DNA of 64,000 nucleotides from Candidatus Caldatribacterium sp. (GTDB lineage Bacteria; Atribacterota; Atribacteria; Atribacterales; Caldatribacteriaceae). Below the pieces are notes generated by a model. That model did not search any database. It had not been told where the DNA came from and saw nothing but the letters and a program-made list of their open reading frames with translations. Both the position numbers and the translations under genes were made by a program. The stretch lies in NCBI RefSeq assembly GCF_025060675.1, contig NZ_JANXBI010000036.1; one strand, written 5' to 3'. Of this stretch, positions 27,349 to 44,064 are shown piece by piece. Position 1 is the first letter of the stretch. Each line of letters begins with the position of its first letter.

Positions 27349-27990
27349 ATGGCGGAAATTCTTGAACAGATTTCCCGGGAACTCTTTGCGGGGAACGCGA
27401 AAGCAGTGGCGGAGCTTGTGGAAAAGGCTCTGCACGAAGGGTTTTCACCGCAGGAGATTCTCAACAACGGCCTTATCAAGGGCATGAACGAGGTGGGTGT
27501 GAAGTTCAAAGCGAACGAGATTTACGTTCCAGAGGTGCTCATCGCGGCGCGGGCGATGAAGGCGGGGATGGAAATCCTTCGGCCAAAACTCGTCGAGACA
27601 GGGGTTGAACCGGTGGCCAAGATGGTTATCGGGACGGTCAAGGGTGACCTCCATGACATTGGGAAGAATCTCGTTGCTATGATGATGGAAGGGGCGGGAT
27701 TCCAGGTCATTGACCTGGGTATTGATGTTCCCGCCGAGAAGTTCATCCAGGCGGTGAGGGAACACAAGCCGCAACTTGTCGGTATGTCTGCGCTTTTGAC
27801 CACCACCATGATTCAGATTCGGGAGAACATCAAGGCTTTCAAGGAAGCTGGTATTCGGGATGCGGTGAAAATCATGGTCGGCGGTGCCCCGGTGACCCAG
27901 AAATTCGCCGATGAGGTTGGGGCTGATGGGTACGCACCGGATGCGGCTTCTGCTGTGGACAAGGCAAAGGAACTCCTTGGGCTCAACTGA
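27349..27990 (+). CDS. Corrinoid (cobalamin-binding) methyltransfer protein, MtaC/MtbC/MttC-like
   Basis: An N-terminal B12-binding_2 helical cap is followed by a Rossmann B12 domain with the DxHxxG motif (GDLHDIGKN), SALLTTT and MVGGAP. Confidence 0.85.
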   Translation: MAEILEQISRELFAGNAKAVAELVEKALHEGFSPQEILNNGLIKGMNEVGVKFKANEIYVPEVLIAARAMKAGMEILRPKLVETGVEPVAKMVIGTVKGDLHDIGKNLVAMMMEGAGFQVIDLGIDVPAEKFIQAVREHKPQLVGMSALLTTTMIQIRENIKAFKEAGIRDAVKIMVGGAPVTQKFADEVGADGYAPDAASAVDKAKELLGLN

Positions 27991-28010
27991 AGGGGCGGAT
28001 GCCCCTTTTT
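27991..28010 (+). terminator. Rho-independent terminator after the corrinoid protein gene
   Basis: The hairpin ggggc-ggat-gcccc is followed by T6. Confidence 0.7.
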
Positions 28011-28077: not shown

Positions 28078-29772
28078 ATGCTCACCGACCTTGAAATCGC
28101 CCAGAGTGCCCACTTAAAGCCCATTACGGAAATTGCTAAAGACCTTGGTCTTGGTGAGGACGATATCGAGCTGTATGGGAAGTACAAGGCGAAAGTATCG
28201 CTTCAAGTGCTTGACAAGCTCAAGAATCGACCACTTGGCAAGTACATTGATGTTACTGCTATCACTCCTACGCCCCTTGGAGAGGGGAAAACGGTCACCA
28301 CTATTGGCCTCTCCATGGCCCTCAACCGAATCGGGAAAAAGAGCATCGTCTGCATTCGCCAGCCATCTCTTGGGCCGGTGTTTGGCATCAAAGGTGGCGC
28401 GGCAGGAGGTGGGTACGCTCAAGTCGTCCCCATGGAAGATTTCAACCTCCATCTCACCGGGGATACCCACGCGGTGGCCTTGGCCCACAACCTCCTTGCG
28501 GCGTTCATCGATAACCACCTCTACCATGGGAATGCCCTCCGCATCGACCCTTTCACCATCAGCTGGCCACGGGTTGTGGACGTGAGTGACCGGGCGCTCC
28601 GGAAGATTATCATCGGACTTGGGGGAAAGGAGAACGGCATCCCTCGAGAATCAGGCTTTGATATTGCGGTAGCTTCGGAGGTTATGGCGATTCTTGCCCT
28701 CACCACGGGCATGAGGGATTTGCGGGAGCGCCTCGGCCGGATTGTTATTGGATACAACGTGGAGAAAAAGCCGGTAACAGCCGAGGACTTGCGATGTGCT
28801 GGGGCCATGGCGGTGCTTTTGAAAGATGCGATCAAGCCGAATCTCCTCCAGACCCTTGAGAATACCCCTTGCTTTGTCCACACAGGACCCTTTGCCAACA
28901 TTGCCCATGGGAACAGTTCCATTCTTGCCGACTACATTGCCCTCCGCCTCAGCGAGTATGTGGTGACTGAAAGTGGCTTTGGTGCCGACTGTGGCATGGA
29001 GAAGTTCATGAACATCAAATGCCGCTACAGTGGCCTTACCCCTGACTGCGTGGTCATGGTGTGCTCGGTTCGGGCCCTAAAAATGCACAGCGGCAAGTAC
29101 AAGGTGGTGCCTGGGAAACCCCTTGACCCAGCCTTGCAGGAAGAGGATGTCGCTGCGGTGGAGCAAGGCGCAGAAAACCTTGTGAAACAGATAGAGAACG
29201 CTCGCCTTTTTGGGGTACCTGTTGTGGTGGCCGTGAACCTCTTCACCACCGATACCGACCGGGAAATCCGGGCGATTGAGCGAATTGCCCTCGACAGTGG
29301 GGCATACGCCTGTGTCGTCTCGGAGGTGTGGGCAAAGGGAGGCGAAGGGGGACGAGAGCTCGCTGAGGCAGTGGTCCGTGCTTGTGAGGAACCTAAGCAT
29401 TTCCGTTTCCTCTACCCCCTTGACATCCCGATAAAAGAGAAGATTGCAATCATTGCGACCCAAATCTATGGGGCTGATGGTGTGGTGTATGATGAAGGTG
29501 TGGAGGAGAAAATAAAGCGTTTCACCGAGTTCGGTTGGGGGAACCTCCCCATCTGTATGGCGAAAACCCACCTTTCCCTCTCCCACGACCCAAAGCTCAA
29601 AGGACGACCTCGAGGGTTCAAGCTCCCTGTAAAGGACATTCGCCCAGCCATTGGAGCAGGGTTCCTCTATCCGCTTTGCGGGGAAATCCGTACCATGCCT
29701 GGGTTGCCTTCAGAGCCTGCAGGGAATAAGGTGGATATCGATGCAGAAGGACGGATTGTGGGGCTTTTCTGA
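28078..29772 (+). CDS. fhs: Formate--tetrahydrofolate ligase
   Basis: TPTPLGEGKTTTTIGL-type P-loop (here TPTPLGEGKTVTTIGL), GIKGGAAGGGYAQV and HGPFANIAHG. 564 aa. Confidence 0.95.
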   Translation: MLTDLEIAQSAHLKPITEIAKDLGLGEDDIELYGKYKAKVSLQVLDKLKNRPLGKYIDVTAITPTPLGEGKTVTTIGLSMALNRIGKKSIVCIRQPSLGPVFGIKGGAAGGGYAQVVPMEDFNLHLTGDTHAVALAHNLLAAFIDNHLYHGNALRIDPFTISWPRVVDVSDRALRKIIIGLGGKENGIPRESGFDIAVASEVMAILALTTGMRDLRERLGRIVIGYNVEKKPVTAEDLRCAGAMAVLLKDAIKPNLLQTLENTPCFVHTGPFANIAHGNSSILADYIALRLSEYVVTESGFGADCGMEKFMNIKCRYSGLTPDCVVMVCSVRALKMHSGKYKVVPGKPLDPALQEEDVAAVEQGAENLVKQIENARLFGVPVVVAVNLFTTDTDREIRAIERIALDSGAYACVVSEVWAKGGEGGRELAEAVVRACEEPKHFRFLYPLDIPIKEKIAIIATQIYGADGVVYDEGVEEKIKRFTEFGWGNLPICMAKTHLSLSHDPKLKGRPRGFKLPVKDIRPAIGAGFLYPLCGEIRTMPGLPSEPAGNKVDIDAEGRIVGLF

Positions 29773-30773
29773 TGGAAAGTGTTGATGTCCTCGTGGTTGG
29801 CGGAGGGGTGGCAGGACTTGCCGTAGCCTCCGCCCTCTGGGAAAAGTACAACGTCGTGCTCCTTGAGGAAAAAGAGTCCTTGGGAGGCCTGGCGCAAGAG
29901 CTCTCTTGTAAGGCAACGGACCGGTGCCTCCGCTGTGGGGTGTGTCGAGCGGTGCATCTTTTGCGGAAAGCTGCTTTCGGTGTGCGTAGCATTCTGGGAG
30001 AACCCCTGAAGGCTGTGGTTTGGGAAAAGAAGGGTTTTCACGTCGCAACGCCTCGCCACGAGTTCCTTGCTCGCTCTATTGTCCTTGCAACTGGGGCGGT
30101 TCCCTTTCCGGTGGAGCGACTCCCTCAATACCTCCGGGGGAGGAAACGGCGCATTTTCACCGGCTTTGAGCTTGAGAAAAAGCTCAAAAGCACCACTCTT
30201 GATGAGCTTGCCGCTTTTTCGTCCTTTGCCTTCGTACAGTGTGTTGGGTCCCGGAATGCGAGGGAAAAGCGAGGGTACTGCTCTCAGGTGTGTTGCCGTT
30301 ACGCATTGCGGCTCATCGAGAATCTCCGCTTTCGACTGCCCCATGCCTTGTTCCATGTCTACTTCATGGACCTCCAGATTCTTGGCGATGGCGAGAATGA
30401 CCTCCGCACCACCGCATCTTCGGTATCTCTGTATCGCTTGATGCCCTCTGCGCTTGCGGAGGATTCCTCGGGGGTCACCGTTACCGTTGAGGCGGATGGA
30501 AAGGTGACCAAGCGGCGTTACGATGCGGTGGTGCTTTCAGTTGGTCTTGTGCCTTCTCCTGGGACGGAACGCGTGGCTGAATTCTTCCGTCTTTCGCGGA
30601 AAGATGGGGGGTTTCTTGTCCCCCGCCCCGAAGACGGCGTTTTCGCCTGTGGCACAGCCACAGGACCAAAGGATATCCTTGGCACCATTTCCGAGGCTGA
30701 AAGGGTTGTGAGTGACCTTGTGGGGTTCCTTGGGGGATCATACCGTGGTTTGGGTGTGCCTGCTCTGTCCTGA
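29772..30773 (+). CDS. Short HdrA-like FAD/Fe-S oxidoreductase (single thioredoxin-reductase-like unit)
   Basis: VLVVGGGVAGLA (FAD GxGxxG), a Cys cluster (CKATDRCLRCGVC), the HdrA signature FVQCVGSRNAREKRGYCSQVCC, and the C-terminal FAD motif VFACGTATGPKDI. The ATG overlaps the fhs stop (TGATG). Confidence 0.7.
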   Translation: MESVDVLVVGGGVAGLAVASALWEKYNVVLLEEKESLGGLAQELSCKATDRCLRCGVCRAVHLLRKAAFGVRSILGEPLKAVVWEKKGFHVATPRHEFLARSIVLATGAVPFPVERLPQYLRGRKRRIFTGFELEKKLKSTTLDELAAFSSFAFVQCVGSRNAREKRGYCSQVCCRYALRLIENLRFRLPHALFHVYFMDLQILGDGENDLRTTASSVSLYRLMPSALAEDSSGVTVTVEADGKVTKRRYDAVVLSVGLVPSPGTERVAEFFRLSRKDGGFLVPRPEDGVFACGTATGPKDILGTISEAERVVSDLVGFLGGSYRGLGVPALS

Positions 30774-32088
30774 TGGTGTGAGCCCACCGGCGTGGGTGAC
30801 TGAAGAGCTCAGAACGTGCGGTTTTTCCTTTGAGGTCGCTTCCTTGTCGCAGCCGAAAGCTCTTCCACCTGCGTCCCTCTTTGTGGTCCTTGGGAACTCC
30901 CTGTGGACGGAGGATGAGGGTACTGCACTTGCCGTGCAGCTTGGTGTGAACCCTCTTGCCGTTTTCGTTTTCCCCTATGATGAGGTGTGTCCGCTTCCTG
31001 ACGCAAAACGCCGGATGCTTTGGCGGAGCTTTCTTGCTTCTCTTGCCCCTCCCACAAGGACCGTTATTCCTTTTCCGGTCATCCCGACTCGGAGGGTCCT
31101 CCTCTATCCTGAGGATCATGGTGTGCTCCGCGAAGCCTTAGCCCGGGTGGATATTCCTGTGGTCTTTTTCCCCTCCTTTACCCTTGTCCGGAGAGGGGTA
31201 GACTTCTACGTGAGGCCGTACGATGTCTTCGTTGGGGCTTGCATCCTCATTCCTTCCTTCCGGGAAGAACCACCTCTTCCCATTCCCCAAGAGGTCCTGG
31301 AAACGAGGAGGGTGGTTGACCTTGTCCACCTTCCCCAGGTTCTTGGGATTTCTCCGGTACGGCGGAAACGCCTCGTTGTCCTTGTCCCTGCCCCGCATCC
31401 GTATCCGGAAGACTGGGAGAGGATTTTTGCCCTTATGTCCCTACCCGCTCAAGGAATGGAGGTTGTGGTCCTTGCGGAAGACATTTTCGTCGCCCGTGAG
31501 GGGTTTGAGGAGGCTTTCCGGAAGGCCCGGGAAAGCGGGGTCATCTTCGAGAAGCTCTCCCTTTCCCGCGTCACCCTCTCACCAAGTCCGGATATGCGTC
31601 GCATCATCGTCCAATACGTTCCGGAGAACGATCCTATCCCGGTGCGTCTTGAGGCCCATTTCCTTGTCCCGGTGGCGCGGAAAACCCTTACTCTCCCACC
31701 CTTTGAGACAGTCTTCATGAGTGACCGAGAGGTTTCCCTTGAGATTCCTGAGAATCCCCAGTTCCCACCCTGTGCCACAAACATCCCTGGGGTTTTTGTC
31801 GCCCGAGGTGACGTTGCCGACCTTGTGGCGGCTGTTACCTCTTACCTCAGGGAGAAGAGGGTGGCTGGAGAAGGACGGGTGGTAGTTGACACAGACCGTT
31901 GCGCCTTGTGTTTGACGTGCCTTCGGAGCTGTCCTGTGGGGGCGATTGTCCTCTCTGGGGAGCTCAAGCGGTGCATCGCGGTGAATGCGGCGCTCTGCGT
32001 GCGATGTGGCGTTTGTGCTGGGCTTTGTCCGGCAAAAGCTTTGCGCTTTGAGGTGGTCCGTGGTGTCCTTGGGCATTATCGGTTGTGA
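30712..32088 (+). CDS. Degenerate HdrA-like protein (no GxGxxG) with C-terminal 2x[4Fe-4S] ferredoxin domain
   Basis: It is co-linear with residues of about 925-1473 of the large Hdr fusion downstream: VVWVCLLCPDG matches IGVFVCRCGVNI, and GVNPLAVFVF matches GLNPYLFAMA. However, the FAD motif and the CVGSR...CC cluster are absent. The C-terminus carries CALCLTCLRSCP and CVRCGVCAGLCP. The start is uncertain (GTG at 30712 or downstream). Confidence 0.5.
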   Translation: MTLWGSLGDHTVVWVCLLCPDGVSPPAWVTEELRTCGFSFEVASLSQPKALPPASLFVVLGNSLWTEDEGTALAVQLGVNPLAVFVFPYDEVCPLPDAKRRMLWRSFLASLAPPTRTVIPFPVIPTRRVLLYPEDHGVLREALARVDIPVVFFPSFTLVRRGVDFYVRPYDVFVGACILIPSFREEPPLPIPQEVLETRRVVDLVHLPQVLGISPVRRKRLVVLVPAPHPYPEDWERIFALMSLPAQGMEVVVLAEDIFVAREGFEEAFRKARESGVIFEKLSLSRVTLSPSPDMRRIIVQYVPENDPIPVRLEAHFLVPVARKTLTLPPFETVFMSDREVSLEIPENPQFPPCATNIPGVFVARGDVADLVAAVTSYLREKRVAGEGRVVVDTDRCALCLTCLRSCPVGAIVLSGELKRCIAVNAALCVRCGVCAGLCPAKALRFEVVRGVLGHYRL

Positions 32089-32410
32089 GCGGAGTGGGTT
32101 CCCAGCGCTCTGTGTCCTGGGAAAGGAGAACCCAGAAGTCTGGGAGGGTATTGTTGCGGCTATTCCTGTTCCTTGTCTTGGAGGGGTCGAGGAGGAGATG
32201 ATGCTTGAAGTGCTCCTCCGATGCGATCGGTTGCTCCTTGTGGGTTGTCCTCCCTTGAGTTGCCGGGGGGTGCAGGGGAGCGTCCTTGCGGAGAAACGGG
32301 TGGCACGGGTATCCCAGCTCCTTGCGGAAGCTGGGATACCTAAAGAGGTCCAGTGTGTTTTCGCTCACGTGCATCGCCTGGGAGAACTCAAAGCGAGGGT
32401 CCTTGCGTGA
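32060..32410 (+). CDS. Divergent MvhD/FlpD-like small Fe-S protein
   Basis: IIGCERSG...PVPCLGGV...LVGCPPLSCRG is co-linear with the canonical copy at 38817 (FLCHWCSY...RVPCSGSV...VSGCHPGDCHY). The GTG starts at 32060/32063 are preceded by gaggtgg. Confidence 0.5.
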   Translation: MVSLGIIGCERSGFPALCVLGKENPEVWEGIVAAIPVPCLGGVEEEMMLEVLLRCDRLLLVGCPPLSCRGVQGSVLAEKRVARVSQLLAEAGIPKEVQCVFAHVHRLGELKARVLA

Positions 32411-33057
32411 TTGTTGGAGAACGGAAACCCCTCAAGGAGGTTCTTGAGCTCCTTTCCCCCCACCGGAAGGTTCTCGTTGTGGGTTGTGGGGCGTGTGTGA
32501 CGGTGTGTCTTGCGGGGGGTGAGCGGGAAGCCCGGGAACTTGCGCTGCTTCTGCGGCTTAAGGGTTTTGAGACTGAGGCAACATCGGTTGAGCGGCAATG
32601 TGAGCGGGAGTTCCTTGTGCCCCTCCGGGAGAGCATCCGTACTTTCTCTGCAGTGCTTTCTCTCGCCTGTGGCGTGGGGGTACAGGTGGTAAGCGATACC
32701 GTCCCAGAGGTTCCCGTTTTTCCTGGCCTCAACACGAGTTTCATGGGTGCGCCTCTTGCTGTGGGAGTCTTTGAAGAGCGATGCATTGGGTGCGGCGAGT
32801 GCATCGTGCATCGTTTTGGGAATATCTGTCCGGTGGCCCGGTGTGCGAAAAGCCTCCTCAACGGTCCCTGCGGAGGGTCAAGAGGTGGAAAGTGTGAGGT
32901 TCGACCTGAACGGGATTGCGCGTGGCAACTCATTTACGAGCGGATGCGAGCCCTTGGAAGGGTTGAGGAACTCTTCGCCATTCAGCCTCCCAAGAATTGG
33001 GCACCTTCTCGCTTTGGGGCTCAAAGGAGGGTTGTGCGGGAGGATGTTCGGCAATGA
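32407..33057 (+). CDS. metV: MetV (methylenetetrahydrofolate reductase C-terminal-domain Fe-S/Zn protein)
   Basis: VVGCGACVTVCLAGGE...CIGCGECIV...CPVARCAKSLLNGPCGGS is typical of acetogen MetV. It has a GTGA start/stop overlap with the preceding gene. Confidence 0.8.
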   Translation: MIVGERKPLKEVLELLSPHRKVLVVGCGACVTVCLAGGEREARELALLLRLKGFETEATSVERQCEREFLVPLRESIRTFSAVLSLACGVGVQVVSDTVPEVPVFPGLNTSFMGAPLAVGVFEERCIGCGECIVHRFGNICPVARCAKSLLNGPCGGSRGGKCEVRPERDCAWQLIYERMRALGRVEELFAIQPPKNWAPSRFGAQRRVVREDVRQ

Positions 33058-33980
33058 GCGTGCTCCAAGAGCTCCTCAAGCAAGGGGTCTTTGTGGTGAC
33101 CGCTGAGGTTGGTCCCCCAAAAGGGGTGGACCAAGAGGGTTTTCGGAAGAAGTGTGCCCAAGTGAAGGGATACGTGGATGCGGTGAATGTCACGGATAAC
33201 CAGACAGCGGTTGTGCGCCTCTCTAGCTTTGCCAGTTGCCTTATTGTGCGCACCATGGGTCTTGAGCCGGTTATGCAGCTTGCCTGTCGAGACAGGAATC
33301 GTATCGCGTTGCAGAGTGACTTCCTTGGAGCCTGTGCGCTGGGGATTGAGAACTTCCTCTGCATTACGGGTGACCACCAAAGCCTTGGGAACCATCCTGA
33401 CGCGAAGAGCGTATTCGACATCGACTCAATACAGCTCCTCTCTATCTTCCGGAGACTCCGGGATGAAGGGATTTTGGCCAATGGGGAGAAGGTGAGGGGA
33501 GACATTCGGGCATTCCTTGGAGCCGGGGAAAATCCCTTTGCCGATCCCCTGGAGTTTCGTGTTTTCCGTTTGGCCAAGAAGGTGGAAGCAGGAGCCCAAT
33601 TCATCCAAACGCAGGCCGTCTTCGACCTTGAGGTGTTCTCTCGATGGATGGAGGAGGTTCGCCGCCTCAAACTCCATGAGAGGGTCCATATCCTTGCGGG
33701 GGTTATTCCGCTAAAGTCTCTACAGGCGCTCCGCTACATGAAGGAAGAGGTGCCGGGAATGGTCATCCCGCGTTGGGTTGAAGAGCGGATGGAGCGCGCT
33801 CAGGATCCGAAGGAAGAAGGGGTACGGATTGCCGTTGAGATTATCGAGGCGCTCCGCAAAATGGAAGGAGTGCGGGGGGTGCACATTATGGCGGTGGCGT
33901 GGGAGAGCATCGTTCCTGAAATTGTCCAACAATCAGGCCTTTTCCCCCGTCCGGCACAGGGGGTGGTTGAGGGTGTATGA
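33054..33980 (+). CDS. metF: 5,10-methylenetetrahydrofolate reductase
   Basis: VTAEVGPPKG, VNVTDNQ, CRDRNRIALQSD, ITGD and the TIM-barrel MetF pattern. It has an ATGA overlap with metV. Confidence 0.9.
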   Translation: MSVLQELLKQGVFVVTAEVGPPKGVDQEGFRKKCAQVKGYVDAVNVTDNQTAVVRLSSFASCLIVRTMGLEPVMQLACRDRNRIALQSDFLGACALGIENFLCITGDHQSLGNHPDAKSVFDIDSIQLLSIFRRLRDEGILANGEKVRGDIRAFLGAGENPFADPLEFRVFRLAKKVEAGAQFIQTQAVFDLEVFSRWMEEVRRLKLHERVHILAGVIPLKSLQALRYMKEEVPGMVIPRWVEERMERAQDPKEEGVRIAVEIIEALRKMEGVRGVHIMAVAWESIVPEIVQQSGLFPRPAQGVVEGV

Positions 33981-34431
33981 TGCCGCTTTCCGATACGAGG
34001 TTGCCCATCGTCCGGGAGGAGAGGGACTTTTCCTCTGCTTTTCCTGCGGGGTATGTACAGCGACCTGTCCGGTAGCCGAGGTGGATGAGGATTTCAATCC
34101 TCGTCGAATCATCCACAGCGTCCTCCTTGGGGATCGGAGCGTTCTCTCCTCTCGGAGTATTTGGATGTGTGCCGCCTGTTTTCGCTGTGTTGCCCATTGC
34201 CCTCAGGGAGTGGAGTTCGCCAACGTTCTCCAGGTTCTTCGAGAGATGGCTGTTGCAGAGGGTCATGTTCCGGAGGAAGTCCGACGGATCATCGAACACC
34301 TTGATGCCCGAACCCAGAAGCTTCGTCGGGACTTCATCGCGCTCCTCTTTGAGAGGAGGGCGTTCTCGTTTCCAGAGTATGAAGACCTCTGGAAGCGTTA
34401 CTTAGGAGGGGGAACGCATGGAACGTCGTAA
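33973..34431 (+). CDS. HdrC-like 2x[4Fe-4S] protein
   Basis: Two CxxCxxCxxxCP motifs (CFSCGVCTATCP and CAACFRCVAHCP) are spaced as in heterodisulfide reductase subunit C. The GTG at 33973 overlaps the metF stop. Confidence 0.7.
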   Translation: MYDAAFRYEVAHRPGGEGLFLCFSCGVCTATCPVAEVDEDFNPRRIIHSVLLGDRSVLSSRSIWMCAACFRCVAHCPQGVEFANVLQVLREMAVAEGHVPEEVRRIIEHLDARTQKLRRDFIALLFERRAFSFPEYEDLWKRYLGGGTHGTS

Positions 34432-37400: not shown

Positions 37401-38839
37401 AAACCTTGCGGGAAGCGGGTCTCAATCCGTACCTTTTTGCTATGGCCAACATCCGTGACCAGTGCTCCTGGGTCCACCAGGGGGAGAAGGAGGAGGCCAC
37501 CGAAAAGGCAAAAGACCTCGTGGCCATGGCGGTGGCTCGGGCCGCCCTTCTTGAGCCCCTCACGCCTTTTCCCGTTCCCGTCGAGAAGGCGGTGCTTGTT
37601 GTTGGTGGAGGTCTTGCGGGAATGACGGCGGCTCTTGAAGCAGCGCGGCAGGGACTCTCTGTGTACCTTGTGGAACGGGAAAAGGACCTTGGTGGGCAGG
37701 ACCTTGCGTACACCCTTGAGGGGGTCCATCTTGCCAAGCTTCGGGAAGAGCTCAAAAAGGATATCGCGGCCCGCCCAAGCATTCAGGTGTTTACCGAGGC
37801 GAAACTCCTTGAGGTCAGTGGTTTTGTGGGGAATTTCGAAAGCCTCGTGGAGCAGCGGGGAACTCTCCATACCCTCAAGCACGGAGGGATTATCGTTGCT
37901 ACGGGTGGGAGAGAGTACCGTCCCGAAAGAGGAGTCTTCCTCTACGGAGAAGACCCGAGAGTCCTCACCCAGAGGGAGCTTGAACGGAGGATGCACCAAG
38001 GGAACTTCATACCCCCAAAACGGGTGGTCATGGTTCAGTGTGTCGGCTCTCGCAACGCGGCGCATCCGTACTGTAGCCGCGTCTGCTGCGTACAGGCGGT
38101 TAAAAACGCCCTGCGTCTTAAAGAGATTGCAAAGGATACGGAGATTGTGGTGCTCTACCAGGATATGCGAACCTATGGGCTGCATGAGCGGTACTACCAG
38201 GAGGCCAGAGCAAAGGGAGTATTCTTTGTGCGGTTTGGGGATGGGACAACGCCTGTGGTGGAAAAGCAGGGTGAGGATCTCCTGGTGCGGTTCTTTGACC
38301 CGCTCCTTGGAGCGGTAGTGGTAATACCTGCGGATTTTGTCGTTTTGAGTACCGGCGTCGTTCCCCAAGAGGACGCTCCAGCGCTTTCGAAACTCCTCAA
38401 AGTCCCTCTCACCCAGGATGGGTTTTTCCTTGAGGCCCATGTGAAACTTCGCCCGGTGGACTTTGCCACTGAAGGTATCTACGTCTGTGGGCTGGCCCAT
38501 GGTCCGAAACTCGCTGAGGAGAGCATTCTGCAAGCAAAGGCCGCCGTTGCCCGTCTCATGACGGTGTTGAGCAAAGACACCATACTCTCCGAGGCGCAAA
38601 TCGCCGCCGTGGATGAGAGGAAATGCGTCGCCTGTGGGGACTGCGAGCGGGTGTGCCAGTACCGGGCCATCCAGGTGGATTGGGGTAAACGGACTGCGCA
38701 GGTCAATCGAGCGTTGTGCAAGGGATGTGGCTTGTGCAGCGCCACCTGTCGGAGTGGAGCGGTGCAACTTTGTGGTTTCACGAAGGACGCGATTCTTGCC
38801 GAGGTGGAATACCTCTATGAGTGTTCCCTGGGAACCTAA
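34418..38839 (+). CDS. HdrL-type giant fusion: HdrA unit with inserted GltD/NfnB-like NAD(P)H module, plus a second HdrA unit and a ferredoxin domain
   Basis: 1473 aa.
- First HdrA unit: VVGGGIAGIEAA, then TFPTNDCAMCILSPK.
- GltD-like insertion at about nt 34890-36080: NPFPGICGRACHHPCMDQC, VAVVGAGPSGL, VIGGGNVAIDCA, FAGGD.
- First unit resumes: FVQCVGSRDVKRGHSYCSSVCC.
- Second unit from about nt 37620: VVGGGLAGMTAA, MVQCVGSRNAAHPYCSRVCC.
- C-terminus: CVACGDCERVC and CKGCGLCSATC.
- Start: ATG at 34418, preceded by taggaggggg. Confidence 0.85.
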   Translation: MERRNPLGTVLVVGGGIAGIEAALDLAEAGFFVHLVEKSSSIGGLMARLDKTFPTNDCAMCILSPKLVECGRHLNIAVHTLSEVVDVSGEPGHFVVTILENPRYVDVASCTGCGDCASVCPVDVPNDFEGGLSLRKAVFRLFPQAFPGAFQIHKKGVPNCQAACPLEQKAQGYIALLRQGRFAEAVQVVRMDNPFPGICGRACHHPCMDQCQRGMFDAPLRIPFLKRFLADWERNSGKVLLPQIRGERPERVAVVGAGPSGLSCAYFLRLLGYRVVVFEAQNQPGGMMRFGIPPYRLPREVVEWEIAALEQLGVEIRCGTSWGRDFTLADLFAWGYSAVYLACGAWKGAKLGVEGEDHPQVIDGLAYLLSCSRCEDVPKAERIAVIGGGNVAIDCARTALRQGAKEVTIYYRRSFDEMPARPEEVEEAREEGVEFVFCAAPKRFIERDGRLFLEMLGVRLCAPDESGRRRPEVVPGSEFTVSADLYIVATGQKIAIPKDEGLELTPWGTVRVDRNLATSIPRVFAGGDLVLGPATLVEAIAHGKRAAYAIDALFRGQSFGEDPRSPAPLALPWGTARNPGEQPRRLEVAKRLLGFSEVVSGYTEEEARKEAARCLSCGGCAECLRCVEACQRGAIRHGDEPRLRQLEVGAIIYAQGTEVLRPKEVLRELGLGRCPNVITSLDFERILNASGPTKGQVVRPSDGKVPRRIAFVQCVGSRDVKRGHSYCSSVCCMYAIKEALVAQEHLRVEGDSAPFEVTVFLIDMRAFGKDFERYYERAKAQGIRFVRGRVSHVLPQENGDVVVFSVDEGGNKRSEVYDLVVLSVGLCVPEEERKRLRELGIPLDPEGFPYTAAFGTRMVRPGIFVCGSLAGPKDIPGTVVEAGAVACEVGALLAPSRRQHVREKTYPKEREVRSEPLRIGVFVCRCGVNIAGVVDTGAVAAWARELPGVVYVEENLYTCSQDTQERIKEKIAEYRLNRVVVASCSPRTHEPLFRETLREAGLNPYLFAMANIRDQCSWVHQGEKEEATEKAKDLVAMAVARAALLEPLTPFPVPVEKAVLVVGGGLAGMTAALEAARQGLSVYLVEREKDLGGQDLAYTLEGVHLAKLREELKKDIAARPSIQVFTEAKLLEVSGFVGNFESLVEQRGTLHTLKHGGIIVATGGREYRPERGVFLYGEDPRVLTQRELERRMHQGNFIPPKRVVMVQCVGSRNAAHPYCSRVCCVQAVKNALRLKEIAKDTEIVVLYQDMRTYGLHERYYQEARAKGVFFVRFGDGTTPVVEKQGEDLLVRFFDPLLGAVVVIPADFVVLSTGVVPQEDAPALSKLLKVPLTQDGFFLEAHVKLRPVDFATEGIYVCGLAHGPKLAEESILQAKAAVARLMTVLSKDTILSEAQIAAVDERKCVACGDCERVCQYRAIQVDWGKRTAQVNRALCKGCGLCSATCRSGAVQLCGFTKDAILAEVEYLYECSLGT

Positions 38840-39251
38840 AATCGTTGCCTTTCTCTGCCACTGGTGTAGTTACGCGGGGGCGGATCTTGCTGGGGTGAGC
38901 CGGATGCAGTACCCTCCGAATATCCGGGTCATTCGAGTCCCGTGCTCAGGGAGCGTTGACCCTCTCTCCATTCTCAAGGCACTCCGAGACGGAGCTGATG
39001 GGGTGCTCGTCTCAGGATGTCATCCGGGAGACTGCCACTACCTGAGCGGGAATTACTTTGCTCGGCGGAAGTTCCTCGTGTTGCATGAGCTTTTTAGGTT
39101 CCTCGGCCTTGAAGGGCGAGTGCACTTTTCCTGGATTTCGGCCTCAGAGGGGCAACGTTTCGCCGAAGTGGTGGATGCTGTTGTTGAGGCGGTTCGGGGT
39201 CTCGGTCCGAATCCCCTGGTGAGGGAGTGGAGGTCTCATGACGCTCCGTGA
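38817..39251 (+). CDS. mvhD: MvhD/FlxD-type [2Fe-2S] protein (methyl-viologen-reducing hydrogenase delta subunit family)
   Basis: KIVAFLCHWCSYAGADLAGVSRMQYPPNIRVIRVPCSGSVDP...GADGVLVSGCHPGDCHY is a near-consensus MvhD sequence. Confidence 0.9.
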   Translation: MSVPWEPKIVAFLCHWCSYAGADLAGVSRMQYPPNIRVIRVPCSGSVDPLSILKALRDGADGVLVSGCHPGDCHYLSGNYFARRKFLVLHELFRFLGLEGRVHFSWISASEGQRFAEVVDAVVEAVRGLGPNPLVREWRSHDAP

Positions 39252-40161
39252 GGTTGCTCGAAAGCTCCTTGAGGAAGGGACTGTTCAGGCCGTCTTGGGG
39301 TATCGGCAAGGATCGTTGCCCTTTCGTGTTCGCCCTTCTCTTTTCCGGAGCCCCGAAGATGTGAGAGAACTCATCTTCACCCCTTTCTGTGGGGTGAATC
39401 TGGCAAAGTACCTTTTCCACCTTCCCCAAAAGGGTGAGAGGGTGGCCATCGTCGCCAAAGGGTGTGATGGTCGCTCCCTTGTGGTCCTCATGCAAGAGCA
39501 CCAGGTTCGGCGGGAGGACCTCTACATCCTTGGGGTACGCTGTCCGGGAATGGTGGACTGGAGGAAGCTCTCCGAAACGTGGAAGGACCTGAAGGAGCAG
39601 GAGGTGTGCTTTGAGGGGGAGAGGCTTATTGTGCGAGGAACTGCGTACCCTCTTTCGTCTTTCCTTGAGGCATCGTGCAAGCGATGTCGCTATCGGAGCC
39701 CCCTTGTGTACGACGTGCTTTTGGGTGAGGAACCCCCTCCTTTCCCCTTTGTGGATACTTTGCGTGAGCTTTGGCAGCTCCTTCCCGAGAAGCGGTGGGC
39801 ATTCTTCGCCCAAGAATTCTCTCGTTGCATTCGTTGCTACGCCTGTCGGAATGCCTGCCCGATGTGTTACTGCAAGGAGTGCTTTGCCGAAAGCCACAGG
39901 CCCTTTTTCCTCCATCCCTCTCCGACGCTTCGAGATACGTTCGTGTTCCACCTGGGTCGGGCCATGCACCTTGCGGGGAGATGCGTCGGTTGTGGTGCCT
40001 GTGAGCGTGCTTGTCCTTTGAGAATACCTATCGCCACGCTCTTTTTCGCCGTCTCGGAGACAGTGCGAGAAGCGTTTGCCTTTGAGGCTGGGGTGGATAC
40101 CACGGCTTCAGCACCCTTTGTGACCTACCGGGAGGATGATCCTGATGCGTTTATCCGGTGA
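39238..40161 (+). CDS. Fe-S protein, FlxC / FrhB-like
   Basis: CIRCYACRNACPMCYCKEC and CVGCGACERACP match the CxxCxxCxxxCPxCxC pattern shared with the AsrA/HydB/Flx Fe-S subunits. The exact family assignment is uncertain. Confidence 0.55.
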   Translation: MTLREVARKLLEEGTVQAVLGYRQGSLPFRVRPSLFRSPEDVRELIFTPFCGVNLAKYLFHLPQKGERVAIVAKGCDGRSLVVLMQEHQVRREDLYILGVRCPGMVDWRKLSETWKDLKEQEVCFEGERLIVRGTAYPLSSFLEASCKRCRYRSPLVYDVLLGEEPPPFPFVDTLRELWQLLPEKRWAFFAQEFSRCIRCYACRNACPMCYCKECFAESHRPFFLHPSPTLRDTFVFHLGRAMHLAGRCVGCGACERACPLRIPIATLFFAVSETVREAFAFEAGVDTTASAPFVTYREDDPDAFIR

Positions 40162-41101
40162 AGGTCGTGTCGTATCGTATGAGGCATTCCTCAAGTGGTT
40201 CGAAGGGAAAAAGGTTTTCGTGACAGAAACGGTTCATAGCCGTTTCCCCCTTCCTTTCCCCTCTCTTCCCACCCCCAAGAGTCTCCTCCTCCCCCAGAGG
40301 GAGGTATTGTACCGCTTTTTCTGGGCAAAGAGGACATGGAACATCCTCTCCCTCCCCCCCTCCTCAGAGGAGGTCTTCTTGCTCTGTGCTCCCTGTGAGG
40401 CAAGAGCCGTGGTTGAAGTCCTTGATACGGTCTTTCTCCAGAGTGCTCCCACGGATACCTCGTATGCGGAAAGGCGCAAGAACCTCACCCTTGTGGTTGT
40501 GGGATGCACCTTCTTTGCAGCCACCTGTTTCTGCACGAACGTTGGTGGGCATCCCCTCTCTTGGAAGGGGGCGAAGGGTTTCGCCCTCCCCTTTGCGTTT
40601 TTGGTGTACCTAGAAGGAGAGGGACCAGAAGGTCGGCCTCTAGAGCCTCAAGAGGAGCAAGAGCTTGAGATGCTCGTCGAACGCCTGGAGCACGATGCCC
40701 TGCCACCCCTTCCTGAGGAGACGCCTGAACGCCTCTTGAGGGCTTTTGAAGGGGCTGCCTGGGAGGAGGTCACCTGGGGGTGCTTGAACTGTGGGGCCTG
40801 TACGTTTCTCTGCCCGACGTGCTTTTGCTTTGACCTTGTGCCAGAGGGAAAGCTCCGTGGGGCAATGGTTCGGACCTGGGACAGCTGCATGTTCCCAAAG
40901 TTTACCCTCCATGCCTCTTCCCATAACCCAAGACCCCATCCGATGCAGCGGGTTCGCCAGAGAATCCTCCACAAGTTCTCGTATTTCCCCCTTCGGAAAG
41001 GGGTGTTTGGTTGCGTAGGATGTGGGCGATGTGCGCTCCTTTGTCCGGTCAACTGGGACATCCAGGAGGCTTTAGGGAAGGTGATGTCCAGTGCGCCATG
41101 A
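40136..41101 (+). CDS. Fe-S protein, sulfhydrogenase beta (HydB/ShyB) / AsrA / FlxB-like
   Basis: CLNCGACTFLCPTCFCFD...WDSCMF...CVGCGRCALLCP is typical of the anaerobic sulfite reductase A / sulfhydrogenase beta family. Confidence 0.7.
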   Translation: MILMRLSGEGRVVSYEAFLKWFEGKKVFVTETVHSRFPLPFPSLPTPKSLLLPQREVLYRFFWAKRTWNILSLPPSSEEVFLLCAPCEARAVVEVLDTVFLQSAPTDTSYAERRKNLTLVVVGCTFFAATCFCTNVGGHPLSWKGAKGFALPFAFLVYLEGEGPEGRPLEPQEEQELEMLVERLEHDALPPLPEETPERLLRAFEGAAWEEVTWGCLNCGACTFLCPTCFCFDLVPEGKLRGAMVRTWDSCMFPKFTLHASSHNPRPHPMQRVRQRILHKFSYFPLRKGVFGCVGCGRCALLCPVNWDIQEALGKVMSSAP

Positions 41102-41918
41102 AGGGATTTACACTCCTTGCCTTCTCCCCATAGAGGAGATTCTTGAGGAGACCCCTGACATTAAGACGTTTCGGGTTCGCCGCCCAGAGGGCTTTGCCTA
41201 CCTCCCAGGGCAGTTTGTGGCGATTTTCGTGCCTGGGGTTGGAGAAGCGCCCTTTTCCATTGCTTCGTCACCGACGGAGGAGAGATTCCTTGAGTTCAGC
41301 GTGAAGCGCTTGGGTTCAGTCACAAGCGCCCTCCATCGCCTCAACCCTGGAGATGTCGTTGGTCTTCGAGGGCCTTACGGCAATGGGTTCCCCCTTGGAG
41401 CATTGATTGGGAAAAACCTCCTCTTTGTGGGTGGGGGCATTGGTCTTGCGCCACTGCGCTCTCTCATTACCTATGTCCTCTCCCCGGAACACCGACCATC
41501 TTTCGGAGAAGTGTACATTCTCTATGGGGCCCGCACGCCGCAAGACCTTGTTTTCCGGTGGGAACTTTCTCACTGGGAGAGGCGAAACGACCTCACCCTT
41601 TGCCTCACCGTTGATGAGGGGGATGCCACCTGGAGCGGCAGGGTGGGGCTTGTGCCCAACGTGCTTCGAGAGGTCTTCTCCTTCCCCAGCGACAACTGGG
41701 TGAGTATTGTCTGTGGCCCCCCGATTATGATAAAGTTTACCATCAAAGCACTTCGGGAAATGGGTTTCATGGCTAGAAACGTCCTCACAACCCTTGAGAT
41801 GAAAATGAAGTGCGGCCTTGGTAAGTGTGGACGATGCAACATCGGTCCGTACTACGTGTGTCATGATGGGCCGGTGTTCTCGTACGAGATGCTTCTGACA
41901 ATGCCTGAGGAGTACTGA
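41091..41918 (+). CDS. FAD/NAD(P)H oxidoreductase with C-terminal [2Fe-2S], sulfhydrogenase gamma (HydG/ShyC) / AsrB / FlxA / PyrK-like
   Basis: It has an FNR-like fold (GQFVAIFVPGVGEAPFSI, FVGGGIGLAPL) and a C-terminal CGLGKCGRCNIG...VCHDGPVF. It uses a GTG start overlapping the upstream stop. Confidence 0.8.
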   Translation: MRHEGIYTPCLLPIEEILEETPDIKTFRVRRPEGFAYLPGQFVAIFVPGVGEAPFSIASSPTEERFLEFSVKRLGSVTSALHRLNPGDVVGLRGPYGNGFPLGALIGKNLLFVGGGIGLAPLRSLITYVLSPEHRPSFGEVYILYGARTPQDLVFRWELSHWERRNDLTLCLTVDEGDATWSGRVGLVPNVLREVFSFPSDNWVSIVCGPPIMIKFTIKALREMGFMARNVLTTLEMKMKCGLGKCGRCNIGPYYVCHDGPVFSYEMLLTMPEEY

Positions 41919-41920
41919 CC

Positions 41921-43258
41921 ATGGAGTATCGAGAGGCTTTAGAATACCTTTTTGGGCTTATCAACTATGAGAAGACGAACATTCCCTACACCGACCTCAA
42001 ACTTGAGCGGATGCGGGAGTTTATGGCCCGCCTTGGGAATCCCGAGCGCCATCTCCCCACCGTCCTTATCGCGGGGACCAAAGGGAAAGGGAGCACTTCT
42101 TACCTCCTCCACCGCCTCTTTGGTGGGTTCCGTTTCCGCTGTGGTCTCTACTCTAAGCCTCACCTATTCACCTTCCGAGAACGTATCCGTATAAACGATG
42201 AGCTCATTACGCCGAAGGAGCTTGCCAACCTCGTTGCTGAGGTCCGTCCTGTTGTGGAACGCATGGGGTGGGAATCACCTTGGGGGAAACCGACTTACTT
42301 TGAGGCCTCAGTTGGTCTTGCTATGCTGTACTTTGTGGAGCGTAAGGTTGATGTGGCGGTTGTGGAAGTTGGCCTTGGGGGGAGACTCGATGCGACAAAC
42401 GTCACCGAACCCTGTGTGACCGTTATCACCCCAATAAGCTTTGACCACATGGAGGTTCTTGGGAATACTTTGACGGCCATCGCCCGTGAGAAAGCTGGGA
42501 TTCTCCGTCCTTCTGTCCCCCTTGTCCTTGCTCCTCAGGAGGATGAAGCGCGAAGGACTATCCTTGAGGAGGCTCAAAAAAAGGGTGCACCAGTTTTTGA
42601 GGTTGCTCACCTTGCCAGGGTGGAGATTCGAGAGAGGAGCCGAGAAGGTTCTCGATTCTCCTTTTCCATCCCGCAATGGGGAGAGGGGGAGGTTGGGCTT
42701 CCACTCCTTGGGGACCACCAGGTGACGAATGCGCTCTCAGCACTCTTTGCGCTTTCCCTTTTTGACCTTCCCTTTGACCTTTCCCGCGTGAGAGAGGCGT
42801 TCACCTCTTTCTCTTTCCGGGGACGGGTGGATGTCCTTCTGCAGAATCCGCTTGTCGTCTTTGACGTTGCCCACAACCAAGCGTCGTTTCGGGCACTCCG
42901 CAGAGCTTTGCAGGAATACCTTGGAGTGGAGAAGGCCATCTACCTTCTTGGGTTCCTTGAGGGGAAGGATTGTGCGGGAATTGCCCAAGAGCTCCAAGGC
43001 GCCGCGGCACATCTTGTGCTCACAGAGCCTCTCCATCCAAAGGCTTTGCCTGCTGTGAGAGCCCTGACGTACTTTGAGGCGTTCCCGGTTCCTAAGGAAG
43101 TTGTTCCCGATGCGTGTCGAGCAAAGGAGAGAGCTCTTGCTCTTGCAGAGTCCTTGGGTCTCCCCCTTGTGGTTGCTGGGTCTTTCTACCTTGCTCGACC
43201 TTTCCAGGAGGAGTTTCGAGTGCGGGATGTCCTCGAAGAGGAGGTGGAACTGTGCTGA
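41921..43258 (+). CDS. folC: Folylpolyglutamate synthase / dihydrofolate synthase
   Basis: P-loop IAGTKGKGST and the Mur-ligase motifs (VVEVGLGGRLDATN, HQVTNA). Confidence 0.9.
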   Translation: MEYREALEYLFGLINYEKTNIPYTDLKLERMREFMARLGNPERHLPTVLIAGTKGKGSTSYLLHRLFGGFRFRCGLYSKPHLFTFRERIRINDELITPKELANLVAEVRPVVERMGWESPWGKPTYFEASVGLAMLYFVERKVDVAVVEVGLGGRLDATNVTEPCVTVITPISFDHMEVLGNTLTAIAREKAGILRPSVPLVLAPQEDEARRTILEEAQKKGAPVFEVAHLARVEIRERSREGSRFSFSIPQWGEGEVGLPLLGDHQVTNALSALFALSLFDLPFDLSRVREAFTSFSFRGRVDVLLQNPLVVFDVAHNQASFRALRRALQEYLGVEKAIYLLGFLEGKDCAGIAQELQGAAAHLVLTEPLHPKALPAVRALTYFEAFPVPKEVVPDACRAKERALALAESLGLPLVVAGSFYLARPFQEEFRVRDVLEEEVELC

Positions 43259-44052
43259 TTGTGGCCGAACGTATTAATGCGGCGAGAAAGCCTATTCGAG
43301 AAGCCCTGGAGCGCAAAGATGTGGCTTTGCTCCTTGAGGAGGCAAAAAAGCAAGAGGCGGCAGGAGCCCATTTCCTTGATGTGAACGCAGGAACAGAGGC
43401 AGAGGAGGAAATCGCTAACCTTCCTTGGCTTGTGGAACTCCTCCAGGAGGAGGTTGCCATCCCCCTCTGTCTTGACACGGCCAACGATCAAGCCCTGGAG
43501 CGGGCTTTGGCAGTGTACAAGAAGAAAGAGGTCATGATTAACTCTTTCACCGCTGAACCCCACCGCATCGCGGGGGTGTTGCCCCTTGCCAAGGCCTATG
43601 GTGCGTACGTTGTAGGGCTGGCGATGGGTACTGGGGGTATCCCCGAATCCGTTGCCGATCGTCTACGACTTGTGGAACAGCTTGTTCGTGCCGCTTCTGA
43701 CTATGGTATTCCCGAAGAACGCCTTTTCATTGATCCCCTTGTTGTACCTATCGGTACCGACCAGAGGCAAGGGAGGGTATTTCTTGAGACCCTCAAAGAG
43801 ATTAAGGAAGAGTTCCCTGGTGTCCGAACCATCTGTGGTTTGAGCAACATCTCCTTTGGAATGCCCAATCGTCGTCTTCTCAACCGGACGTTTCTTGCCT
43901 TGTGTGCTGGGTACGGTCTTGATGCGGCTATTATTGATCCCCTCGATCGGGAACTCATGTCGGTGCTTTACGCTGCTCTTGCGCTTTTGGGACAGGATGA
44001 ATTCTGTATGAACTACATTGCCGCCTATCGGGCGGGGAAGTTGTGTCCGTGA
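43252..44052 (+). CDS. Methyltetrahydrofolate:corrinoid methyltransferase (pterin-binding, AcsE/MeTr/MtrH-like)
   Basis: ERINAARK...FLDVNAG...LCLDTAN...INSFT...GLSNISFGMPNR is the pterin-binding TIM-barrel pattern. The GTG at 43252 is preceded by gaggaggtgg and overlaps the folC stop. Confidence 0.8.
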   Translation: MLIVAERINAARKPIREALERKDVALLLEEAKKQEAAGAHFLDVNAGTEAEEEIANLPWLVELLQEEVAIPLCLDTANDQALERALAVYKKKEVMINSFTAEPHRIAGVLPLAKAYGAYVVGLAMGTGGIPESVADRLRLVEQLVRAASDYGIPEERLFIDPLVVPIGTDQRQGRVFLETLKEIKEEFPGVRTICGLSNISFGMPNRRLLNRTFLALCAGYGLDAAIIDPLDRELMSVLYAALALLGQDEFCMNYIAAYRAGKLCP

Positions 44053-44064
44053 CAGGTTTGCGGT

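Follow-up and report, generated by a model that had tools for sequence, protein, structure and literature searches.

Gene organization of the locus

The 64,000-nt stretch of Candidatus Caldatribacterium DNA analyzed here (contig NZ_JANXBI010000036.1, called ‘the window’ below) contains an operon in which metV and metF, the genes for the two subunits of a methylene-tetrahydrofolate (methylene-THF) reductase, are followed on the + strand by genes for an HdrC-like protein, a large HdrA (HdrL), an MvhD-type protein and three Flx-like proteins. Each part belongs to a known family; what is new is the combination of MetFV, HdrC, HdrL, MvhD and Flx without HdrB, which is not described in the searchable literature. 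The original prediction, made from the sequence alone, knew of no characterized enzyme of such composition, and we likewise find none described or characterized there; the neighborhood has been drawn before (PMC13408713, Fig. 6D), with the Hdr genes left without interpretation. We favor, at a probability of about 0.5, a single HdrL-centered bifurcating MetFV-Hdr-Flx complex with a role in methyl-THF supply. Which electron partner serves the Hdr-linked methylene-THF reductases has been a question ever since the Moorella enzyme was purified, and the energetics of the methylene-THF step set the ATP yield of many anaerobes.

Domain annotation with Pfam and NCBIfam bore out the gene identities that had been proposed. 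It also corrects an annotation in which source names include ‘FAD-dependent oxidoreductase’, ‘NAD(P)-binding protein’ and ‘homotetrameric NADPH-dependent glutamate synthase’. The genes from metV to flxA are the following (L001 is a Thermatribacter-type metagenome contig from Atribacteria, used for comparison throughout):

32407..33057, + strand: metV, Fe-S/Zn small subunit of methylene-THF reductase (Pfam PF12225, 1.1e-35; 65% identity to the L001 homologue)
33054..33980, + strand: metF, catalytic subunit of methylene-THF reductase (Pfam MTHFR, 4.8e-38; PDB MTHFR matches)
33973..34431, + strand: hdrC-like 2x[4Fe-4S] protein, 152 aa (NCBIfam HdrC models, 4e-23)
34418..38839, + strand: large HdrA (‘HdrL’), 1473 aa (Pfam, NCBIfam; PDB HdrA 5odc_A, 3e-183, and NfnB/GltD matches)
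38817..39251, + strand: mvhD2, the FlxD equivalent, MvhD-type [2Fe-2S] protein (Pfam FlpD, 3.3e-51)
39238..40161, + strand: flxC-like, FrhB/FdhB family, 2x[4Fe-4S] (weak Pfam FrhB_FdhB_N/FrhB_FdhB_C, and Fer4)
40145..41101, + strand: flxB-like Fe-S protein of the AsrA/sulfhydrogenase-beta type (Pfam Fer4_22, 8.7e-32; NCBIfam AsrA, HydB)
41091..41918, + strand: flxA-like FAD/NAD(P)H/[2Fe-2S] protein of the sulfhydrogenase-gamma/AsrB/PyrK type (Pfam FAD_binding_6, NAD_binding_1, DHODB_Fe-S_bind)

These genes sit within an unbroken + strand chain of 14 genes, seen in the open reading frame (ORF) listing and in an analysis of start codons, that leads from fhs (28078-29772) to a pterin-binding methyltransferase gene ending at 44052. 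As first described, the chain has no gap larger than 2 nt: its 13 spacings are, in order, -1, -29, -29, -4, -4, -8, -14, -23, -14, -17, -11, +2 and -7 nt, computed with starts picked by homologue length and Shine-Dalgarno-like motifs. The overlapping junctions named earlier, TGATG (29770-29774), GTGA (32407) and ATGA (33054), can all be read directly in the sequence. From this arrangement we would expect translational coupling and a single transcript of the chain. Such tight packing is typical of this genome and not special to the operon, since ORFs on the same strand overlap in many other parts of the window (e.g. at 4765-7291, 13036-15106, 15725-19317 and 51652-54677).

Architecture of the large HdrA

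HdrL contains two HdrA-like units. The first is a thioredoxin-reductase-like HdrA formed by residues 1-154 and 619-900 (structure matches at 10-154 and 619-799), and between its two parts lies an insert (about 158-626) that is a GltD/NfnB-like module for FAD, NAD(P)H and 2x[4Fe-4S], with 5jca_L as the best match (5e-80). The second unit, at 915-1467, is a complete HdrA without the inserted ferredoxin domain. Residues E684/K737 and E1189/K1229 align with E356/K409 of HdrA (5odc) and are invariant in 20 homologues from several phyla; the GxGxxG and GGGNVAxD motifs of the GltD/NfnB-like insert are invariant in 20 homologues as well. In the literature the Glu/Lys pair is used as a flag of bifurcating HdrA flavins (PMC9430772).

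The HdrA of Moorella thermoacetica (1487 aa, 162.8 kDa) also carries a GltD insert, and its Glu/Lys pairs are E696/K750 and E1204/K1246 (PMC9430772, Kremp et al.). Compared through these published residue numbers and domain descriptions rather than by direct alignment, the two proteins share the published layout, so that ‘HdrL’ and ‘Moorella-type HdrA’ are the same kind of protein. The original prediction had counted three kinds of modules in the operon (Moorella-type MetFV-Hdr, HdrL-type and Flx-type). Each is indeed present by its domains, but the count is one too high, as the HdrL architecture is that of the Moorella HdrA.

The name HdrL comes from Desulfobacterium autotrophicum HRM2 (PMC2702500), where the protein is likewise a fusion of HdrA with a glutamate-synthase-type part and is followed by mvhD. 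The same arrangement is found here, with mvhD2 directly 3' of hdrL and overlapping it by 23 nt; in this case the gene has no in-frame TGA and thus no selenocysteine. Members of the family also occur outside D. autotrophicum, contrary to what was first thought, and at least 599 loci are present in the GTDB species set. For the 1473-aa protein itself there is a 99% identical sequence in a public assembly; it is about 79-80% identical to matches named Candidatus Caldatribacterium and 60-63% to those of other Atribacteria, which include the complete genome CP121689.1 (Thermatribacter velox by source name).

Partner subunits and the missing HdrB

The metV and metF genes overlap by 4 nt and provide the MetF + MetV pair of type IV methylene-THF reductases (MTHFRs). 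The HdrC-like protein that follows is short: its residues 16-108 match positions 25-116 of the 192 in the HdrC model, i.e. the ferredoxin-like N-terminal part. No operon protein has a Pfam match to PF02754, the CCG domain of HdrB, and a regular-expression scan for the CCG motif, a crude detector that was checked against Pfam on four proteins from loci L007, L081 and L085, gave no hit in any ORF of the 64-kb window or of the seven other loci of its type described below. A published gene table agrees in listing hdrA and hdrC with hdrB = 0 in 24 genome columns, which we infer to be the class Atribacteria. The operon therefore lacks HdrB from the Moorella-type MetFV-HdrABC-MvhD set that had been read into it, and in its absence a disulfide cannot be the second substrate. 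A DsrC domain is likewise absent from the scanned ORFs of the window.

Downstream of HdrL, the MvhD2 protein is 56-82% identical to MvhDs encoded next to flx genes, as against 41-51% to those next to metV. The best solved homologues of the FlxC-like protein are FdhB subunits of Fdh-Hdr supercomplexes (7bkb_E, 5.4e-31; also 9t1s_M and 8rvu_E), and those of the FlxB-like and FlxA-like proteins are Pyrococcus sulfhydrogenase I beta (9nez_B, 6.3e-23) and gamma (9nez_C, 1.6e-57), respectively. Equivalents of Desulfovibrio vulgaris FlxB, FlxC and FlxD are seen at the domain level, the likeness being set by domains and not by comparison of subunit sequences. Proteins of Desulfotomaculum reducens hdr loci that are annotated as FAD/NAD(P)-binding oxidoreductase subunits have been treated as FlxA orthologues in the literature.

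The FlxA-like protein keeps the motifs GGGIGLAP and PFSI and four invariant Cys (alignment A2). Thus both NAD(P)H entry points of the original prediction, GltD-like and FlxA-like, have intact nucleotide-binding motifs. The form of the first motif varies between loci, with GGGIGLAP in the window, L001 and L003 and GGGFAFTT in L007, L081, L084 and L085; going by the motif, the two subfamilies may possibly differ in nucleotide use.

Comparison with other genomes

A scan for large HdrA proteins in one genome per GTDB species gave the 599 or more confirmed loci already mentioned, of which the best 80 were compared, together with six further loci. The core metV-metF-hdrC-hdrL-mvhD-flxC-flxB-flxA recurs in the same order in several lineages. 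Loci of the window's type, seven in number, were found in Atribacteria (L001, L002, L004 and L006), Limnochordia (L003), a Bacillota metagenome-assembled genome (MAG; L041) and a termite-gut spirochaete MAG (L050), and the synteny search thus removes the idea that the arrangement is singular to one taxon. For neighborhood counts we used the 41 HdrL loci in this set (the best 80 of at least 599, and the six further loci) that have at least 5 kb on each side:

hdrL beside metVF, no flx (Moorella-like): 16 loci, CCG protein in 11
hdrL beside flx, no metVF: 8 loci, CCG protein in 5
metVF and flx beside one hdrL: 7 loci, CCG protein in 0
metVF and flx with two hdrL copies (L022): 1 locus, CCG protein present
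hdrL without metVF or flx: 9 loci, CCG protein in 6

A CCG protein is absent from all seven loci that combine metVF and flx beside one hdrL and present in five of the eight with flx only, as one would expect of loci in which MetFV substitutes for HdrB. Individual loci illustrate what can take this place. In a Syntrophales genome (L007) the order is hdrL-mvhD-flxC-hdrC-hdrB-flxB-flxA, with HdrB confirmed by Pfam. In Candidatus Formimonas warabiya (L081) a DsrC-like gene and an HdrCB fusion, both identified with Pfam, come ahead of hdrL-mvhD-flxCBA. By these checks the flx-only type is a Flx-Hdr complex in which HdrL serves as HdrA. The simplest reading is that HdrL-MvhD-Flx is a reusable chassis with a varying acceptor module; depending on the genome, it is joined to HdrB with a DsrC-like gene, to lactate-utilization genes or to MetFV. 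The closer identity of MvhD2 to flx-linked MvhDs, given above, supports this reading. A neighbor-joining tree of HdrL without support values, to be taken as a hint only, places most window-type HdrLs nearer to flx-linked ones than to most of those linked to metVF alone.

The loci with other partners have features of their own. In L081 (8363-17516) a sigma-54 activator gene precedes the DsrC-like and HdrCB fusion genes, and we know of no report of sulfate reduction by the dichloromethane fermenter Formimonas warabiya. An Aerophobetes MAG (L084, 1-18633) has two HdrL-type genes, hdrC, hdrB and flxCBA beside genes for LUD-domain, LarA-like and FAD-oxidase proteins, which suggests an HdrL-Flx complex linked to lactate oxidation. 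In a Planctomycetota genome (CP070830.1; L086, 8508-14004) a gene for a 153-aa HdrC-like protein and one for a 1667-aa HdrL occur on their own; their surroundings contain no separate mvhD and no flx, metVF or CCG gene.

In Thermatribacter velox (CP121689.1), an IS110-family transposase gene on the opposite strand lies between mvhD and flxC (L002, 14899-16092); the same junction is uninterrupted in L001 and 12 similar contigs. With HdrB missing, an added NAD(P)H module, a spread over several lineages, culturable isolates (Caldatribacterium and T. velox) and this IS110 split, the wiring of the system is open to experiment.

Relation to known systems

The MetFV-HdrABC-MvhD complex of M. thermoacetica was reportedly described by Mock et al. 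in 2014, and FlxABCD-HdrABC of D. vulgaris by Ramos et al. in 2015; the operon resembles both. Like the Moorella complex, a type IV MTHFR (PMC8760232, PMC9430772), it has MetF, MetV, HdrC, MvhD and a large GltD-insert HdrA with both Glu/Lys pairs, encoded next to and in the same orientation as metVF. Unlike the Moorella complex, it has no HdrB, three added Flx-like genes and an added split HdrA with a second small MvhD; the gene order differs, and the operon lies outside an acs cluster. With the D. vulgaris system, compared here by description, it has in common a subunit for FAD, NAD(P)H and [2Fe-2S] and, at the level of domains, counterparts of the two Fe-S subunits and of the MvhD-like one, all encoded beside HdrA and HdrC; but it lacks HdrB and a DsrC-like gene and has MetFV in that position, its HdrA is the 1473-aa GltD fusion, and the flx genes run in the order D-C-B-A. 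Because HdrB is missing, the operon is best called a variant, and not a full member, of the type IV MTHFRs or of the Hdr-Flox systems.

More distant parallels exist. Methanogen Fdh-Hdr supercomplexes (7bkb, 8rvu and 9t1s) also join HdrA, MvhD and an FdhB-family subunit, and so offer an analogue for transfer from a donor module through MvhD to HdrA; here there is no FdhA, HdrB or formylmethanofuran dehydrogenase, and the donor would be an NAD(P)H module like sulfhydrogenase beta/gamma. NfnAB and Pyrococcus sulfhydrogenase I have modules like those found here, but here these form part of an HdrA scaffold or are joined to it, and hydrogenase subunits are absent from the operon.

Proposed electron path

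In Hdr structures, electrons from a donor module reach the HdrA flavin by way of MvhD and are carried on to HdrB by HdrC. In Fdh-Hdr supercomplexes FdhB feeds HdrA through MvhD, and the NADPH module of Pyrococcus sulfhydrogenase I consists of its beta and gamma subunits. With these as a guide, we give an even chance to the 11-gene core (29772-41918) encoding a type IV methylene-THF reductase of the Moorella lineage that is placed on an Hdr-Flx chassis without HdrB. Somewhat more tentatively, its products could form an HdrB-less Flx-HdrL-MetFV supercomplex of 8 to 11 subunits, with MetFV instead of HdrB as the arm of high potential at an HdrA bifurcation site, and with NAD(P)H oxidation coupled to ferredoxin reduction.

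In such a complex, NAD(P)H would be oxidized at the FlxA-like flavoprotein, at the GltD/NfnB-like insert of HdrL, or at both. Electrons from FlxA would pass through the FlxB-like and FlxC-like proteins to the [2Fe-2S] cluster of MvhD2, and from there to an HdrA flavin with the Glu/Lys signature, where the pair would be split. The high-potential electron would continue through the HdrC-like dicluster protein and MetV to the MetF flavin and methylene-THF, and the low-potential electron through the ferredoxin domains of HdrA to ferredoxin. MetFV, reached via the short HdrC, would sit where HdrB sits in Flx-HdrABC complexes. In sum, 2 NAD(P)H + methylene-THF + oxidized ferredoxin would yield 2 NAD(P)+ + methyl-THF + reduced ferredoxin, in a reaction expected to be near equilibrium and reversible. 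The cofactor and domain assignments used here are at the level of sequence, and the path that joins them is what we infer. If it is right, the supercomplex would offer a natural system, now in culture, in which to look for the second acceptor that Hdr-linked methylene-THF reductases use.

With E0' at about -200 mV for methylene-THF and -320 mV for NADH (PMC9430772), the transfer from NADH to methylene-THF is exergonic alone. This would also suit a non-bifurcating arrangement in which Hdr and Flx are merely an NAD(P)H input wire for MetFV, like RnfC2-MetVF (type III) of Acetobacterium woodii. MetF and MetV have no NADH site and need an input module (PMC8760232), and HdrA homologues without bifurcation exist (PMC9430772). 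Nevertheless, the Glu/Lys signature at two HdrA flavin sites is invariant across phyla, the ferredoxin-type output domains are conserved, and a simple wire would need far fewer flavin sites than the three or more seen here, and far fewer Fe-S clusters than the dozen or so predicted. We consider this arrangement very improbable.

One complex or two

Upstream of metV lie three more genes that encode a second, degenerate HdrA/MvhD set, which the original prediction did not set apart as such:

29772..30773, + strand: hdrA1N, short HdrA-like flavoprotein (Pfam Pyr_redox_2; NCBIfam HdrA2, 1.5e-34; PDB HdrA 316-551, 3.4e-29)
30745..32088, + strand: hdrA1C, degenerate HdrA-like protein (Pfam Fer4 only; PDB HdrA residues 418-624, 7e-9)
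32060..32410, + strand: mvhD1, small divergent MvhD/FlpD-like protein, start somewhere within 31985-32069 (Pfam FlpD, 1.5e-11; L001 homologue 128 aa)

In the hdrA1N product a dinucleotide-binding motif is found at the N-terminus, along with the CVGSR...CC motif of HdrA; the signature Glu is kept, and Arg stands in place of Lys. The hdrA1C product lacks GxGxxG and ends in a 2x[4Fe-4S] ferredoxin domain with eight invariant Cys (alignment A4). The best fold matches to its AlphaFold model (pLDDT 68.6) are HdrA chains (7bkb_A, 5odc_A and 8rvy_A; E = 4e-11 to 5e-10), and by this prediction its fold is HdrA/thioredoxin-reductase-like; having lost both dinucleotide-binding motifs and kept the eight Cys, it looks like a pseudo-enzyme scaffold. 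It is also the least conserved product of the operon, with 32% identity to Thermatribacter; a word-indexed search for relatives returned Caldatribacterium-like proteins only, and more distant ones were seen via synteny and tblastn.

The presence of this trio raises a serious alternative, that the operon encodes two co-transcribed enzymes, which we regard as somewhat unlikely. One would be MetFV with hdrA1N/hdrA1C and MvhD1, a ferredoxin-dependent or HdrA-wired reductase; the other, HdrC-HdrL-MvhD2-FlxCBA, would be an Nfn-/Stn-like transhydrogenase or an NADH:ferredoxin module supplying reductant. Such a division fits the way the split HdrA and small MvhD track metVF, which they also adjoin in L003, L041, L050 and L052. 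Moreover, HdrL-MvhD-Flx can occur without metVF and with no CCG protein detected within 9 kb (L025, L043 and L053), a solitary hdrC with the 1667-aa HdrL is found in the Planctomycetota genome, and the window's own NfnB-like module (5jca_L, 5e-80) is present together with a PyrK/NfnA-family FlxA. A Desulfotomaculales MAG (L085) has the order acsD, acsE-like, hdrA, hdrC, hdrB, MvhD-like, flxC, flxB, flxA, hdrL, mvhD, metV and metF; L022 is similar. In both of these Bacillota loci an HdrABC-MvhD-FlxCBA set adjoins an HdrL-MvhD-MetVF set, each with its own HdrA and MvhD; the two could well be separate enzymes, so that Flx and MetFV need not be parts of one complex.

Set against this division are the presence of a homologous large HdrA in the Moorella MetFV complex itself (PMC8760232, PMC9430772), the position of hdrC between metF and hdrL in all window-type loci, without HdrB, and the state of the trio. 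Its members are just 32-40% identical to those of L001, as against 57-82% for hdrC, hdrL and mvhD2, of which the last two reach 60-82%, and hdrA1C lacks the dinucleotide-binding motif. We thus prefer HdrL as the hub of one complex over two complexes, because the Moorella HdrA is part of a MetFV complex, HdrC has no evident partner apart from MetV/MetF, and the HdrA1 trio is degenerate and fast-evolving. In Moorella, MetFV co-purifies with the large HdrA, HdrA is the NADH-oxidizing subunit and MetF has the methylene-THF site (PMC8760232, PMC9430772).

Several points weigh against a single bifurcating complex. The purified Moorella enzyme showed no coupling of NADH with methylene-THF, and no involvement of ferredoxin was found (PMC8760232). 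In Sporomusa ovata a different role has been put forward for the Hdr-like proteins, as an anchor of MetVF on a membrane electron-transport chain. The split HdrA and small MvhD always adjoin metVF and could be the real partner of MetFV, and the separate sets of L085 and L022 tell the same way; with both of these in view, the gene order is compatible with one supercomplex and with two complexes. Finally, so large an enzyme of many subunits seems a high price for a biosynthetic reaction of low flux.

Methyl flow and host physiology

The direction in which the complex would work depends on the one-carbon genes around it:

28078..29772, + strand: fhs, formate-tetrahydrofolate ligase (Pfam FTHFS, E = 1.8e-263, full length)
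41921..43258, + strand: folC, folylpolyglutamate synthase (FPGS) (NCBIfam TIGR01499, 323.6 bits; cutoff 162.65)
43252..44052, + strand: pterin-binding methyl-THF:corrinoid methyltransferase (Pfam Pterin_bind; NCBIfam PRK07535, 315.9 bits, cutoff 259)
27349..27990, + strand: corrinoid protein with B12-binding cap and B12-binding domain, upstream of the hairpin that precedes fhs (Pfam PF02607, PF02310)

The methyltransferase scores below the cutoff of the AcsE model (156 vs 370), and an FPGS-only activity has been argued for FolC (PMC13408713). The corrinoid protein gene, probably a separate transcription unit, has the same position in other Atribacteria, where its product is 84-88% identical. 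This product is nearest to MtgC/MtbC-type cognate corrinoid proteins (NCBIfam TIGR02370, 214.1 vs a cutoff of 215.3).

Caldatribacterium are thermophilic sugar fermenters and folate auxotrophs, without genes for formate dehydrogenase and glycine cleavage (2026, PMC13408713). Nearly all Atribacterota have fhs, folD and metF, and CODH/ACS, with acsABCDE, was found in two genomes only (2024 survey, PMC11227167). Since the host group lacks CODH/ACS, the operon is not the methyl branch of acetogenesis. The scanned ORFs of the window contain no CODH/ACS or CFeSP domains; a Wood-Ljungdahl or reductive glycine operon was also considered and rejected, as no gcv, fdh, CODH/ACS or folD gene was found among them.

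The role is probably reductive, with methyl-THF supplied to the methyltransferase of the operon and to the adjacent corrinoid protein, a pair that would carry methyl groups between methyl-THF and a corrinoid. A JS1 Atribacterota bin has a methionine-synthase activation domain, metF, such a methyltransferase and a ‘trimethylamine corrinoid protein’ in one expressed cluster, which suggests that such methyltransferase/corrinoid pairs make up part of a split methionine synthase. That cluster, along with the glyA, folC, fhs and purH genes nearby, favors a biosynthetic ‘folate island’. The supercomplex, if it exists, would then mean that Hdr-linked methylene-THF reductases also operate outside acetogenesis, in fermenters without CODH/ACS.

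The same assembly could also run in reverse, as a confurcating methyl-THF oxidase that works with NAD(P)+ plus reduced ferredoxin. Methyls taken from methylated substrates by a corrinoid methyltransferase system would then pass through methyl-THF to formate, with ATP made via Fhs. The likeness of the corrinoid protein to the cognates of methylamine and glycine-betaine methyltransferases would fit such a methyl-oxidizing role. In addition, fhs is first in the operon, in Thermatribacter-type loci a gene for a formate/nitrite-family transporter separates glyA from the corrinoid protein gene, and methyl-THF oxidation with NAD+ alone would be uphill (-200 vs -320 mV). On the other side, the scanned ORFs of the 64-kb window contain no MttB, MtaB or O-demethylase-type methyltransferase, nor any other substrate methyltransferase or homocysteine-binding domain. 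The JS1 grouping with metF and the activation domain points to methionine synthesis, and Caldatribacterium take up little or no 13C-formate and have no formate dehydrogenase in their genomes (PMC13408713). We judge the reverse direction to be unlikely, and retain methyl-THF supply as the preferred role.

Boundaries and flanking features

The terminator described earlier just upstream of fhs is present as a hairpin with a T-run. At the other end, the boundary had been placed at the 12-nt gap at 44053, but the chain runs on: two more ORFs follow after gaps of 12 and 3 nt, both syntenic in other Atribacteria, and the unit ends at the convergent hydF. It thus comprises 16 genes (28078-45747). The features concerned are:

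27989-28008, + strand: terminator-like hairpin GGGGCGGATGCCCC with a T-run, then an AT-rich 87-nt spacer before fhs (consensus scan and direct reading)
44065..44913, + strand: conserved ORF with a hydrophobic signal-like N-terminus, without Pfam or NCBIfam match
44917..45747, + strand: conserved ORF, last of the chain, without Pfam or NCBIfam match, Atribacterota-specific

The first of these ORFs is 50-53% identical to its syntenic counterparts in L001, L002, L004 and L006. The second has 33 homologue clusters, for which all source names given are Atribacterota; Foldseek found no PDB fold match for its AlphaFold model (pLDDT 73; best E = 1.1). Its stop and that of hydF, the [FeFe]-hydrogenase maturase gene, are 2 nt apart (45747-45750), which leaves no space for separate terminators. 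Beyond hydF on the other strand are a gene for a fumarase/aspartase-family lyase and purH; at the opposite end, a NifU-like gene and glyA lie farther upstream than the corrinoid protein gene.

Within the chain, a GGAGG-like motif precedes most starts. Alternative starts are present for mvhD1 (31985-32069), hdrC (33967/33973), flxB (40136/40145) and the methyltransferase (43252/43261); for hdrA1C, with homologues of 445-447 aa, GTG at 30745 is favored. The consensus scan also marked weak hairpins inside the operon, e.g. at 30583-30611. Between 27000 and 46000 there are 41 terminator-like hairpins, compared with 26.6 ± 4.2 in shuffled sequence; nearly all are on the + strand and within coding regions, and the excess is probably an effect of composition (negative AT skew).

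No riboswitch or other RNA regulator was found upstream of the corrinoid protein gene or of fhs. The sole Rfam match in the window is a 6S RNA on the + strand at 54739-54896 (RF00013), which scores 68.1 bits against a gathering score of 46.4.

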